Positions 1 to 36,166 of a stretch of 37,329 bases of DNA are shown here, piece by piece. Source of the stretch: a virus (taxonomy: Duplodnaviria > Heunggongvirae > Uroviricota > Caudoviricetes); IMG/VR virus record IMGVR_UViG_2850808358_000008, positions 1-37,329 of that record. One strand, given 5' to 3'. The translations under genes and the position numbers were made by a program. The notes below the pieces were generated by a model that saw only the letters and a list, made by a program, of their open reading frames with translations, searched no databases and was not told where the DNA came from. Numbering within the stretch: position 1 is the stretch's first letter; each line of letters opens with the position of its first letter.

Positions 1-1005
1 TTAATCCCCCGTGGACACTGCGTGGACACTTACGCCACCTTTCAGCGGATTAAGGGCCACCGCATCCTGCAGGTAATCCGGTGCAAAATGCGCATATGCC
101 ATTGTTTGCTGAATGGTTGCGTGGCCAAGAATCTTCTGAAGCGCAATAATGTTTCCTCCGTTCATCACAAAATGGCTGGCGAACGTATGCCGCAGCACAT
201 GTGCAGCCTGGCCTTTTGGTAAATCGGGCTTAACTCTTTTCAGCGCCAAGCAGAATTCCCGGTACTTCACCTCAAACAAGCCGCCTGTTTCTCTGGTTTT
301 GATCGCCTCACAAACTGCCTGCGAAATTGGCACTGTTCTCTTTCGGCCATTTTTGGTTTCAAGAAACGTTACACGGTTATGAACTATCTGTTCACCACGA
401 AGCTTACAAGCTTCACTCCAGCGCGCCCCTGTGCTTAAACACAAAAGCGCAACACGCCAGTAGTCGCCCTCCAATGTATCGAGCAATAGCGCTACTTCCT
501 TCCGGGACAGGAAAGCCATTTCTCGCGGGGATACATAAAGAATAGAAATCCCCCTTACCGGATGCTCTGCATCCCAGAGGCCTATTTTCTTCAGTACGGT
601 AAACATTCCGGATAACCGATTCATATATCTGTTAGCAGATGACGGTTTCAATCCATCAGCTATCTTTTGAGAACGCCACGCGATAATTTTCAGCTTATCA
701 AGATCCACAGCCTGCATATCAGCGCCAAGCTCATTGATTATGTTGCGCAGTTGTTTTCGGTCTTCTTCCGCCTTACGCCTGTGCTGGCCGTGATACATCC
801 ACCACAACTCAAGCAAATCATTTAGCGTTCGACGATCACGGTAGCCCTGTATATATTCCCGCTTTTCAGCGTTCGCCATGATGTAGCGTTCAGTGGCCAC
901 CGCTACCGATTTTTTGTCAAATACCTTACGCACGCGCTTTCCCTTGCGTCCGTTCGGCCTGATGTCCAGCAAATAACGACCATCTTCGAGCTTCTTAATC
1001 GACAT
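1..1005 (-). CDS. int: Tyrosine integrase, P2 Int-like
   Basis: 339-aa ORF with conserved tyrosine-recombinase C-terminal motifs (HVLRHTFASHF, MAYAHF) and an N-terminus resembling P2 Int by recollection. ATG at 1005 follows a GGAGGG RBS; the ORF track begins at a TTG at 1020. Confidence 0.9.
   Translation of the reverse strand: MSIKKLEDGRYLLDIRPNGRKGKRVRKVFDKKSVAVATERYIMANAEKREYIQGYRDRRTLNDLLELWWMYHGQHRRKAEEDRKQLRNIINELGADMQAVDLDKLKIIAWRSQKIADGLKPSSANRYMNRLSGMFTVLKKIGLWDAEHPVRGISILYVSPREMAFLSRKEVALLLDTLEGDYWRVALLCLSTGARWSEACKLRGEQIVHNRVTFLETKNGRKRTVPISQAVCEAIKTRETGGLFEVKYREFCLALKRVKPDLPKGQAAHVLRHTFASHFVMNGGNIIALQKILGHATIQQTMAYAHFAPDYLQDAVALNPLKGGVSVHAVSTGD
11..28. repeat. attL core (gtggacactgcgtggaca), lying inside the 3' end of int
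   Basis: The 18-mer recurs at 36149-36166 with one mismatch (gtggtcactgcgtggaca). The left copy encodes the integrase C-terminus, as is typical for att cores. Confidence 0.65.
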
Positions 1006-1101
1006 CGCGAAGCCCTCCAATGAACCGCTCTACAATTTCTCCAGCCTCTTTCCAGCAATAATCAGACCAGACAAAAAGCAGGTCTAACCAGTTTTCTGGC
1101 C

Positions 1102-1421
1102 TCAGCGGGGTAATTTTTGTTTTGTTTCGGTTGAACTCTGATCGCCCTCCAAACTGGAGAAGCCATCAAGAGAGAGAGCCGGAGAAATTTGCCCAACCTC
1201 CGGCATCGTTTCATCTGTTGATAACCAATAAGCATACTTCTTAAATTTTGGGTGTTTCGTAACCTTAAGTAAGGCCCCCTCTGTTACTTGCTTCCCCCTC
1301 ACCTCATAGTTAGTTACCGTCCATAAGGCAGCCCAACACAATCCGCAAACTCCTGGCGGGTCATACCTTCTGCTTCACGAATCAGGCGAAATTTTTCACC
1401 CATGCTTGACAAAGATGCCAT
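1102..1421 (-). CDS. C: P2 C-type immunity repressor, interrupted by an apparent 1-bp deletion near 1320-1322
   Basis: The N-terminal HTH part (MASLSSMGEKFRLIREAEGMTRQEFADCVGLPYG) stops at 1316-1314, and the C-terminal part (TVTNYEVRGK...KFKKYAYWLSTDETMPEVGQISPALS) continues in the neighbouring frame to 1102. Both halves resemble P2 C by recollection. Confidence 0.65.
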
Positions 1422-1483
1422 ATCGGGCATATCCTCCATTACAAACATGCCACATCGGGCACTCACACATAAAAAAGCTCAAA

Positions 1484-1510
1484 TAAGCCTATATAAGCCA
1501 TTTTGAGCCA
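1484..1510. promoter_or_regulatory. Three 10-bp-phased direct repeats (TAAGCCT, TAAGCCA, TGAGCCA) in the C/cox divergent control region; candidate operator
   Basis: Repeats start at 1484, 1494 and 1504, between divergent C and cox. P2-type C and Cox proteins are known to bind direct repeats in the Pe/Pc region. Confidence 0.35.
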
Positions 1511-1537
1511 TTCGAACGAATTAAGGAGATTACCACA

Positions 1538-1825
1538 ATGAGCGAATCAGAGCTTGAGGGGTTCATTCAGGTAGCACCATATCCACTTGAAGCGGTGCCA
1601 TATCAACTATTCGCCAAGATGATTGGCCGCAAAGAATCAACCGTCAGAACCATGATTGACGCTGCAAAGCTACCAACGATTGACTTTGTAAAACCAGGTT
1701 CAGCAAAGACGCGAGCATCAGAAAACTGGGTATATCTGCCAGCATTTAACGCAGGTATGCGCAAAGCGTTTTTTGATCAGCCGAAAGAGCGCCGCGACGC
1801 ATGGTTGCTCTGGCTGGGTCTTTGA
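1538..1825 (+). CDS. cox: Cox-like excisionase / early transcriptional regulator
   Basis: 95-aa ORF divergent from C. Internal motif (WVYLPAFNAG ... AWLLWLGL) resembles P2 Cox by recollection (WVYLPAWNNG ... GWLMWLGL). RBS AAGGAG lies upstream. Confidence 0.8.
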   Translation: MSESELEGFIQVAPYPLEAVPYQLFAKMIGRKESTVRTMIDAAKLPTIDFVKPGSAKTRASENWVYLPAFNAGMRKAFFDQPKERRDAWLLWLGL

Positions 1826-1836
1826 CGAGGATTTTT

Positions 1837-2178
1837 ATGAGACAACAACGTAATTCACGCTTCCGCAACGGCGCAGAACGCCATGCTAACCGTTTCGCTA
1901 CCAGTGCATCACGTAGCAACTCTCGCTACAGCCTGAGCGAAACACACGCAACGCCGGATGGCTACCCCGTAAAACAAATCGGCGAGCATACCTGGCTGAT
2001 TGAGAAAGCCGGAATCGCGGTCCACAAATGCCCGCGAAATCCGTTTACCGGAAACCGCATTTTTGCGCTGAGCAGCGGAGACAATCAGTTCGGACAGGAT
2101 TTCACATTGTACGAAGCACTACGCACGGTTGATCGCCTGCTGCGTGGACAGAGTTTTATTAAACAGGCTGATTTATAA
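1837..2178 (+). CDS. Hypothetical early protein
   Basis: ORF in the early operon after cox. The ATG at 1837 was chosen because the longer ORF start (1801) overlaps the end of cox. Confidence 0.4.
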   Translation: MRQQRNSRFRNGAERHANRFATSASRSNSRYSLSETHATPDGYPVKQIGEHTWLIEKAGIAVHKCPRNPFTGNRIFALSSGDNQFGQDFTLYEALRTVDRLLRGQSFIKQADL

Positions 2179-2189
2179 CAGGTGCTTTA

Positions 2190-2476
2190 TGACTAAAGAA
2201 CATACTCAGGGTGTATTTATCCGCTTTATTGATTTTCGCGGTGAACTGTTATTACGCGCATCCGCTATTGATGGAGTGGCTCCGGCGGGGAGAAACGGAA
2301 CCGCTGAAGCCACTTACGTTTATCTGAACGGCACTCGACTGCTTGTGGAACTTCCGTACCAGAGCGTACGAGAAATCATTAGCGAAGCTGAAAAGGCACG
2401 TCAGGTTAATGGCGATAAACCCTATATCGAAATTATTTGTATGGATTCAGAAGCAGAAATCCAGAAGGCAGATTAA
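2190..2476 (+). CDS. Hypothetical early protein
   Basis: 95-aa ORF, co-oriented and tightly packed in the early operon. Confidence 0.45.
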
Positions 2477-2486
2477 AGGGCGTGCG

Positions 2487-35040: not shown

Positions 35041-35041
35041 T

Positions 35042-35065
35042 GGTGCCCTCACAAATGAGGGCACC
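35042..35065. repeat. Perfect 10-bp inverted repeat (GGTGCCCTCA caaa TGAGGGCACC)
   Basis: Hairpin or symmetric protein-binding site directly upstream of the GATC cluster and the com promoter region. Confidence 0.4.
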
Positions 35066-35088
35066 ATACATAAGCAATAGGCATAACA

Positions 35089-35126
35089 GATCGATGCAAT
35101 AAATCCGATCGATAAAAACGATCGAT
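35089..35126. promoter_or_regulatory. Cluster of three GATCGAT motifs (three Dam GATC sites) upstream of com
   Basis: GATC at 35089, 35107 and 35120 within about 40 bp, some 45-80 bp upstream of the com start. Confidence 0.5.
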
Positions 35127-35170
35127 TTGTTATCATATCGGCAGCAGTAACCACACAAGAGGTGCCGCAA

Positions 35171-35368
35171 ATGACGCAAAATGTACGATGCAAAAATTGC
35201 AACAAACTACTTGCCCGCGCCTCATTTCACTACATTGAAATAAAATGTCCGCGCTGCAAAACACTTAACCAGATAACGAGAGCCATCGAGCACCCCACAC
35301 ACATGAGGAGTTATGACCGTGGGGATCGCAATCCAGCACCAACCAGCACATACACCGGAACACACTAA
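35171..35368 (+). CDS. com: Com-like zinc-finger translational regulator
   Basis: RCKNCNKLL and FHYIEIKCPRCK match phage Mu Com (RCKNCNKLL, FDHIEIRCPRCK) as recalled. AGAGG RBS. The 3' end overlaps the methyltransferase start. Confidence 0.8.
   Translation: MTQNVRCKNCNKLLARASFHYIEIKCPRCKTLNQITRAIEHPTHMRSYDRGDRNPAPTSTYTGTH
35293..35324 (+). promoter_or_regulatory. Hairpin sequestering the methyltransferase RBS and start codon
   Basis: CCCCAC (35293-35298) pairs with GTGGGG (35319-35324); the loop contains GAGGAG and the ATG at 35313. Confidence 0.4.
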
Positions 35369-36104
35369 GGTTTATCAGACTGACAATGCCATGCTCTGTC
35401 GTGGGAATGCGCTGGAAATATTGCCGCTGATTGAGCCAGAAAGCATTGATGCCTTAATCACTGACCCGCCTTACAGTTCGGGGGCGACACACAAGGCCGG
35501 ACGCACCAACTAGGGCAGCCATGCAAAATATCTAAACGGCGAGAACCTTCACCGCTTTGATGGGTTCGCGGGTGAAAACATGGACGCCCGTTCGTGGGCT
35601 TACTGGACACAATTATGGATGGCACAGGCACACCGCGCAGTCAGGCCGGGCGGTTATGCCTTGGTATTTACTGACTGGCGACAACTACCAGCTTTAACCG
35701 ATGCGTTTCAGGCCAGTGGCTTTACATGGCGCGGCATTATTGCGTGGAACAAAGGGAGGGGGTCACGAACACCACATACCGGGTATTTCCGGCATCAGTG
35801 CGAATACATCGTCTGGGGCAGCAAAGGCCATTTAGATAAATCGCCTTCGGGACCGTTCGACGGCTGCATGACGTTCCCGGTTATCCCGTCAAAGAAAATG
35901 CACCCGACCGGAAAACCAGAAGAACTAATGGCGGAACTGGTCAGGACTGTGAATAGTGGCGGAACAGTCCTTGATCCTTTTATGGGGTCAGGGACAACGG
36001 GGGTGGCTGCACTGAAAGCAGGACGCAAATTTATTGGTATAGAAACCAGTGATCATTATTTTGATGTAGCAACACAACGGCTCAAAACGGCGATCGAACC
36101 ATAA
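35313..36104 (+). CDS. DNA methyltransferase (N6-adenine/N4-cytosine, beta-class) with an in-frame amber codon at 35511-35513
   Basis: N-terminal DPPY motif (ITDPPYSSG) and C-terminal AdoMet-binding motif (DPFMGSGTTGVAA). The two ORFs (35313-35513 and 35580-36104) share one frame and are separated only by a single TAG. Confidence 0.75.
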
Positions 36105-36110
36105 GACAAA

Positions 36111-36128
36111 GCCCGCAATGTTGCGGGC
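36111..36128 (+). terminator. Hairpin downstream of the methyltransferase
   Basis: GCCCGC-aatgtt-GCGGGC stem-loop just after the stop codon; no clear U-tract. Confidence 0.35.
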
Positions 36129-36148
36129 TTACTCTACCTCTCGAAAAT

Positions 36149-36166
36149 GTGGTCACTGCGTGGACA
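36149..36166. repeat. attR core (gtggtcactgcgtggaca)
   Basis: Direct repeat of positions 11-28, sitting between the last prophage cargo gene and the host flk-like gene. Confidence 0.65.

Follow-up and report, generated by a model that had tools for sequence, protein, structure and literature searches.

Probable integrase arm sites in the 18-bp direct repeat near the ends of a P2-like prophage at pdxB

The question raised by this locus is whether a long direct repeat, found close to both ends of a block of phage genes, marks the ends of the prophage itself. The window, i.e. the whole 37,329-nucleotide stretch of viral DNA analysed here, carries such a repeat of 18 bp, and a preliminary description regarded it as the attL/attR core delimiting a prophage of 11-36166. 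Our analysis points to a different answer. Judged by its sequence, the prophage is of the P88/PhiSM type, P2-like and belonging to Xuanwuvirus in the Peduoviridae. Very probably it is integrated at the pdxB core TTTTCATCAACAAGGATTTT, and the pair of 18-mers serves a heterobivalent integrase as its P-arm and P'-arm sites.

Composition of the repeat and its relation to the integrase

The left copy of the repeat is exactly GTGGACACTGCGTGGACA, and the right copy, GTGGTCACTGCGTGGACA, differs from it by one mismatch. A search of the whole window allowing up to three mismatches yields these two matches and no others, whereas 0.05 would be expected by chance, and two matches were obtained in 0 of 100 shuffles. 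The direct repeat is therefore confirmed as lying above chance, and so is the location of its left copy within the 3' end of int (CDS 4-1005, minus strand), where it encodes SVHAVST of the Int C-terminal tail. Each 18-mer is composed of two GTGG(A/T)CA heptamers with a start-to-start spacing of 11 bp. GTGGACA is rare, with only five occurrences in 37 kb, and three of these five are within the two 18-mers.

Table 1. Positions of attachment-site elements, phage genes and host sequence in the window
Feature	Position	Strand	Basis
int, encoding a 334-aa tyrosine integrase of the P2 type; stop codon 1-3	1-1005	-	Pfam Int_N and Phage_integrase
Putative P' arm with a pair of Int arm-type sites (heptamers 11-17, 22-28), in codons of the Int C-terminal tail	11-28	+	17/18 identical to the annotated P2 P' arm Int site GTGGACActgtGTGGACA
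C-type immunity repressor (HTH)	1102-1421	-	106-aa HTH protein annotated at this place in relatives
cox, excisionase / Pc repressor homologue	1538-1825	+	Pfam Phage_Cox, E 3e-23
ogr-like late activator	34329-34589	+	Pfam Ogr_Delta
hok-family toxin, cargo	34781-34921	+	Pfam HOK_GEF; Hok/Gef annotated in relatives
com-like zinc-ribbon regulator, cargo	35171-35368	+	Pfam Zn_ribbon_Com
N6/N4 DNA methyltransferase, cargo	35313-36104	+	Pfam N6_N4_Mtase
GC-rich hairpin terminator closing the cargo module, directly left of the P arm	36109-36130	.	Terminator scan; P2 ogr terminator at the same position ahead of the P arm
Putative P arm, two Int arm-type sites (36149-36155 GTGGTCA, 36160-36166 GTGGACA)	36149-36166	+	15/18 match to the Int site annotated in the P2 P arm, GTGGTCAatgtGTGGACg
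IHF consensus TATCAATAAATTA between P arm and core	36189-36201	+	Regex match to WATCAANNNNTTR; aligns with the annotated P2 IHF site
attR core TTTTCATCAACAAGGATTTT, where the prophage truly ends on the right, within the first codons of native pdxB	36213-36232	+	
Host DNA: native pdxB GTG start, orphaned (36233-35, reverse complement), with the divergent promoter region of pdxB and flk	36233-36333	-	Empty-site annotation and sequence
flk, host gene	36334-37329	+	flk annotation in every matching genome

According to published work, arm sites of the P2 type have the consensus tgTGGaCa and occur as direct repeats, two to each side of the core (PMC3448106). As listed in Table 1, both 18-mers resemble the corresponding Int sites of P2, and the A to T variant in the first heptamer of the P arm (GTGGTCA) is also found in the P2 P-arm site. 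The P arm is conserved in Chuche, P88_4B11 and PhiSM. The order of the elements, i.e. terminator, P arm, IHF site, core and a P' arm that overlaps the 3' end of int, is likewise of the P2 type. The integrase is 49% identical to P2 Int overall, with 30 of 45 residues identical in the N-terminal arm-binding segment. Discriminator residues Y/D/R of the Int N-terminal domain have been described (PMC3448106), and the present Int has the P2-type residues Y11, D14 and R16, the inferred equivalents of alignment positions 16, 19 and 21 in that work.

By analogy with P2, we infer that this Int binds the 18-mers through its N-terminal domain, the two heptamers of each pair being one helical turn apart. 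Int would then link arm sites and core, aided by an IHF-induced bend of the P arm at the IHF consensus, to form the intasome. Integration would leave one arm site near each prophage end, attL and attR, and this is why the 18-mers could resemble terminal direct repeats. The junction positions, the population pattern, the two copies in free phage DNA and the near-identity to the annotated P2 sites are observed; the role as arm sites, with binding by this Int, is predicted from homology to P2.

Since the left copy is located within coding sequence, part of its conservation could reflect a constraint on the protein, and one may suppose that the 18-mers are retained for reasons other than Int binding: for instance, the left copy by the coding constraint on the Int tail only, and the right copy as the site of another protein or as a relic. 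The SVHAVST residues and the predicted nature of Int binding are compatible with this explanation. However, the right copy is non-coding and its heptamers are still invariant across Chuche, P88_4B11, PhiSM and P2, while spacers and flanks vary; both positions are annotated as Int protein-binding sites in the P2 record; and the concentration of the rare GTGGACA heptamer in the 18-mers also argues against it. We thus consider this explanation improbable and retain the assignment as arm sites.

The attachment core and the prophage ends

The core was defined by comparing occupied with empty E. coli sites. The 20-bp sequence of the attR core is common to attL, attR and attB, and the flank on each host side agrees with the empty site at 100 of 100 positions. 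It is followed by CAC at 36233-35, which corresponds to the GTG start of native pdxB, so that the core lies 6 bp inside the pdxB start. The attL copy, placed from relatives, is located 183-202 bp to the left of window base 1, and the window is therefore without the left end of the prophage. A search with the exact Int protein gave six contigs, none of them identical to the window; all six (6/6) have the same attL, with the core in pdxB at a distance of 182 bp from the int stop. Among 5426 complete genomes, 303 carry the attR junction and 303 carry the attL junction. The remaining alignments all stop at the core edges (36213 on the right and position 5818 of locus L001 on the left), and in the 5123 genomes with an empty site they end exactly at the attR core.

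These comparisons would be inapplicable if the prophage were a decayed remnant with rearranged ends, as might be suspected from the broken frames in C, A, T, sheath and D and from the stop codon in the methyltransferase. Nearly all of these lesions, however, are 1-nt deletions in homopolymers of C, G or A, which are typical of sequencing error; the C repressor frame, for example, is broken by a CCC to CC deletion near 1320. In addition, the attR side is intact and its alignment with Chuche stays collinear as far as 36232, where the core ends; further right, the flank agrees with attB at 100/100 positions. A decayed remnant is accordingly very improbable. The in-frame TAG of the methyltransferase is at 35511-35513, and relatives have CAG at that codon.

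The two near-identical direct copies beyond chance, close to both ends of the phage genes, make it understandable that the repeat was proposed as the duplicated att core, but this proposal is virtually untenable: the 18-mer is missing from the unoccupied pdxB-flk locus (0 matches at up to three mismatches in L002), host homology begins at 36213 rather than 36167, the DNA to the left of position 11 is still phage (the int stop codon, plus 182 bp of P' arm that run on without a break in the genomes of free phages), the free phages Chuche, P88_4B11 and P2 each have two double-heptamer copies, with the core between them, rather than one, and the published attP of PhiSM is a sequence other than the 18-mer. 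The prophage junction loci, for their part, have one copy apiece. The preliminary description had itself named an empty site lacking the core, or a junction located elsewhere, as grounds for rejection, and on both counts its main claim is refuted.

The arm sites flanking a separate core have a practical implication: in a P2-like prophage, the longest direct repeat close to the two ends can consist of arm sites for the integrase, the crossover core being a different sequence. Taking the 18-mer as the boundary misplaces both ends, the right one by 47-66 bp (the core starts 47 bp to the right of the proposed attR) and the left one by setting it inside int instead of about 200 bp beyond. The other early claims fared better. 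No tRNA or tmRNA gene was found in a search across the window, in line with the proposed lack of a tRNA target, and the site does adjoin flk, more exactly as the 5' end of pdxB, which is divergent from flk.

Cargo genes and the pdxB start

The placement of hok/mok and com-methyltransferase inside the prophage also held, because the true attR is even further to the right. In genomes with other cargo, homology to the window resumes from about 36140. Neither sok nor any other RNA family was detected by Rfam at the gathering threshold in 34000-37329, and PADLOC detected no defence genes in 9275-11952. This prophage copy also carries IS600.

Core and P' arm are separated by about 192 bp, compared with about 88 bp in P2, so that the P' arm is about 104 bp longer than that of P2; the extra DNA holds a predicted substitute promoter, an SD and a TTG start for pdxB. 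In all the relatives, the TTG start and SD at attL are supplied by the phage and lead to a 385-aa PdxB; the attL of the window itself lies beyond the window. For PhiSM, a promoter for the substitute start has been predicted, together with a growth phenotype (PMC6456863). Since our sigma-70 scan gave no convincing promoter for the substitute pdxB start, we rely on that prediction and phenotype.

In P2, the interval between core and P' arm is the place where Cox and the arm domain of Int assemble. By analogy, pdxB expression might be subject to phage recombination and switch proteins, e.g. shut off by Cox at induction, although we regard this as unlikely; if true, it would be an undescribed coupling of host vitamin-B6 biosynthesis to the prophage state. 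A scan of the P' arm and the C-cox switch region for P2 Cox boxes (TTAAAGNCA, at most one mismatch) gave no match, and the same search also returned none in its positive control, the Cox footprint of P2; the published Cox consensus TTAAA(G/C)NC(A/C) is too degenerate for site scanning.

Comparison with PhiSM, P2 and lambda

The closest systems are Citrobacter phage PhiSM (Shae_phiSM, OR565851) and Escherichia phage P88 / P88_4B11 (Xuanwuvirus). They share the same integrase: window 1-1194, which includes int, shows 95.8% nucleotide identity, and the PhiSM segment made up of the P' arm and the int 3' end is 98.3% identical to that of the window. The core is also the same, as reverse-complementing core bases 1-17 gives the PhiSM attP, ATCCTTGTTGATGAAAA. 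Both attP and attB in pdxB were mapped experimentally for PhiSM, the target lying 6 bp into the pdxB 5' end and the TTG start and SD being provided by the phage (PMC6456863). Integration at the 5' end of pdxB with a replacement start is thus already known, and the present finding is ordinary in this respect; its value is mostly the correction of the prophage boundaries, the hok/com cargo and the lack of a tRNA being already known as well. The arm and IHF sites are unmentioned in the PhiSM paper (PMC6456863).

Gene order is shared with PhiSM and P88, and so is the opposite-strand placement of the sheath-to-U tail block; an inversion of this block was considered and rejected, as it is the normal Xuanwuvirus layout. 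Nucleotide identity in collinear blocks is about 89-98% to PhiSM and about 86-98% to Chuche. The cargo slot from hok to the P arm contains com and the methyltransferase here and in Chuche and H9Ecoli, whereas PhiSM, P88_4B11 and L003 have a zinc-ribbon and 'TagO' pair. Phage 500465-2 was considered as a case of a different integrase on the same core and rejected, its record including host DNA beyond attR. A RefSeq phage record mis-delimits the same locus, running on into host flk and yfcJ.

The arm-site architecture is that of textbook P2. In the P2 GenBank record (AF063097), the order is Int P arm, IHF, core, Cox and Int P' arm, and the P' site starts 8 nt inside the int 3' end, likewise in the window. 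Each arm has the double heptamer tgTGGaCa, and the P2 IHF block, AAATCCTTTTAT(A/T)TCAA, is nearly identical to that of the window. P2 differs in its core, AAAAAATAAGCCCGTGTAAGGGAGATT, and in having a host target other than pdxB. The likeness to lambda attP is more general, lying in a heterobivalent Int whose N-terminal arm-binding and core-binding domains bridge distant sites with IHF (PMC3448106); lambda differs in its arm consensus, in the number and arrangement of its sites, and in using Xis in place of Cox.

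The 18-bp repeat and the prophage junctions

The 18-mer GTGGACACTGCGTGGACA at 11-28 and its one-mismatch copy GTGGTCACTGCGTGGACA at 36149-36166 were taken in the preliminary description as the ends of the prophage. The pairing itself is beyond chance: 0.05 matches are expected, two were reached in 0 of 100 shuffles, and no further copy occurs in the window at up to 3 mismatches. The left copy is located inside the final codons of the minus-strand int, starting 10 nt within the gene. Since the int stop codon occupies bases 1-3, the window opens precisely where int ends, and nothing to the left of the gene is visible. 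No tRNA or tmRNA gene was found in the window, in agreement with the earlier remark that the integration site has no tRNA.

The left junction was traced in L001, an E. coli locus containing attL, where int is 99.6% identical and pdxB lies ~160 bp past the int stop, annotated as 385 aa versus the usual 378 aa (7 residues longer). Where the site is empty, pdxB and flk lie side by side in divergent orientation, and homology to the window starts at 36213, within the first pdxB codons. Three-way alignment of attL (L001), attR (window) and attB (L002, the empty pdxB-flk locus) demonstrates one common block, TTTTCATCAACAAGGATTTT, whose host flanks are identical to attB at 100 of 100 bases on each side; bases 36233-36235, reverse-complemented, give the GTG start of native pdxB. 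Because L001 6001 corresponds to window base 1, the attL core is positioned 183-202 bp to the left of the window. An identical Int protein is encoded on six contigs, and in every one of them the core is found 182 bp past the int stop, with the 385-aa PdxB, usg and truA coming next. Assuming that the source genome keeps the 182-bp spacing seen in all the relatives, the phage genome would be ~36.4 kb from core to core.

The same junctions appear across 5426 complete E. coli genomes searched with an attR probe (161 bp) and an attL probe (321 bp). Each probe is fully covered in 303 genomes; in all others, the attR alignment begins only at probe base 74 (window 36213), and the attL alignment ends at probe base 89 (L001 5818), the final core base. 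Comparison with an empty site had been proposed as a check on the repeat, and the empty locus contains no match to the 18-mer even at 3 mismatches.

Free phages give a further comparison. Each 18-mer consists of two heptamers, GTGG(A/T)CA, 11 bp apart. We rebuilt attP by joining the P arm (the 36149-36166 side) and core of the window to the P' arm of L001, and this sequence runs uninterrupted in both Escherichia phage Chuche and Xuanwuvirus P88_4B11. Chuche is collinear with the window up to 36232, and window base 1 picks up 183 bp further on. Two copies of the double heptamer flank the core in each of Chuche, P88_4B11 and P2, with one copy at each prophage junction locus. Since a crossover core would be single in attP and the 18-mer is not, the 18-mer is not the crossover core. 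With host homology beginning at 36213 as well, the interpretation of the repeat as the prophage boundary is wrong.

Cargo at attR and the rest of the prophage

The placement of hok and the com-methyltransferase inside the prophage is retained, the region between ogr and attR being phage cargo. In relatives with other cargo (zinc-ribbon and 'TagO'), homology to the window returns from ~36140, just ahead of the P arm, indicating that the slot is a moron site with exchangeable content, ahead of an attP that is conserved. The methyltransferase has an in-frame TAG at 35511-35513, which is CAG (Gln) in Chuche and H9Ecoli; because this is a C-to-T nonsense change rather than a homopolymer indel, this copy may encode a genuinely inactive enzyme.

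On the minus strand at 36191-36235, the promoter and GTG start of native pdxB are orphaned and read into the P arm. From this start, a 14-codon ORF, VKILVDEKNKDLIY*, crosses the IHF site and heads for the arm sites, and the terminator hairpin has its T-rich tail on the same strand. Read-in transcription over attR is possible. The record L017 (NC_049343.1, Escherichia phage 500465-2) does not stop at the P arm and core but takes in host flk and yfcJ (2501-4865), so that its deposited RefSeq boundary overshoots attR.

Coordinates of the core, IHF match and genes in the window
Feature	Position	Match or basis
Core TTTTCATCAACAAGGATTTT	36213-36232; L001 5799-5818	attL/attR/attB line-up
IHF consensus TATCAATAAATTA	36189-36201	perfect match, inside P2-IHF-like block
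ParM-like gene	8003-8962	
Plasmid_stab_B gene	8832-9278	
IS600 orfA	9572-9874	HTH_Tnp_1
IS600 orfB	9910-10812	rve
412-aa ORF	26114-27352	weak glycosyltransferase family 9 (heptosyltransferase) match; after tail-fibre assembly gene
ogr	34329-34589	Ogr_Delta
hok	34781-34921	HOK_GEF
com	35171-35368	Zn_ribbon_Com
Methyltransferase	35313-36104	N6_N4_Mtase
Hairpin terminator	36109-36130	closes cargo module

Gene order is as in Xuanwuvirus relatives, where the tail block from sheath to U likewise lies on the opposite strand. Relative to close relatives, 1-nt deletions at ~1320, ~6171, ~7659, ~7860, ~28980, ~32681, ~33089, ~33132 and ~33218 disrupt the frames of the C repressor, replication endonuclease A, tape measure T, the tail sheath and the start of D. 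Because nearly all these lesions fall in homopolymers of C, G or A, they point to sequencing or assembly errors rather than prophage decay; a genuinely broken repressor would be hard to square with stable lysogeny.

IS600 (IS3 family; ~9508-10770, 27-bp imperfect terminal inverted repeats) sits between the ParR-like gene and the portal gene, in a variable region that corresponds in position to the P2 old/tin hotspot, and PADLOC detected no defence genes within 9275-11952. The ParM-like and Plasmid_stab_B genes, a segregation pair of plasmid type within a P2-like phage that integrates, are also present in PhiSM and Chuche. The 412-aa ORF is a possible LPS-modifying conversion gene; relatives carry an invertase and alternative tail-fibre segments at this position.

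Probable arm sites compared with P2 and PhiSM

We consider that the 18-mers are putative Int arm sites of an attP that follows the textbook P2 layout, at a target already published. GTGGACA occurs only 5 times in the 37-kb window, 3 of them inside the 18-mer sites, and all four heptamers are invariant across five aligned attP regions in which spacers and flanks vary. The block resembling the P2 IHF site is nearly identical in the same alignment. In P2 (AF063097), the annotated order is ogr terminator, Int P arm, IHF site, attP core, Cox site and Int P' arm. The P2 P' site begins 8 nt inside the int 3' end, compared with 10 nt here, and the P2 arms GTGGTCAatgtGTGGACg (P) and GTGGACActgtGTGGACA (P') have GTGGTCActgcGTGGACA and GTGGACActgcGTGGACA as counterparts in the window. 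Int shares 49% identity with P2 Int overall and 30 of 45 residues in the N-terminal segment, where we take Y11, D14 and R16 to be P2-type discriminators (PMC3448106). By homology, the mechanism would be that of P2 and lambda, in which Int bridges arm and core sites and IHF bends the DNA. The integrated prophage would keep the P' arm on its attL side and the P arm on its attR side, and the arm sites would thereby mimic terminal repeats.

Core and P' arm are ~192 bp apart here versus ~88 bp in P2. Within the DNA that P2 lacks, this region (L001 5819-6000, outside the window) carries a substitute pdxB TTG start and SD and a 16-bp inverted repeat at L001 5940-5974.

Magaziner et al. mapped the attP of Citrobacter rodentium phage PhiSM as ATCCTTGTTGATGAAAA, with the E. 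coli K-12 attB lying within pdxB, 6 bp from its start; they reported that the phage brings a TTG start and a near-consensus SD that read into pdxB, and showed that lysogens grow on minimal medium (PMC6456863). That paper contains no discussion of arm or IHF sites, and their putative assignment here follows directly from P2 by analogy. Bases 1-17 of the core here, reverse-complemented, give the PhiSM 17-mer; the two phages share 98.3% identity across the P' arm and the 3' end of int, and ~89-98% in collinear genome blocks.
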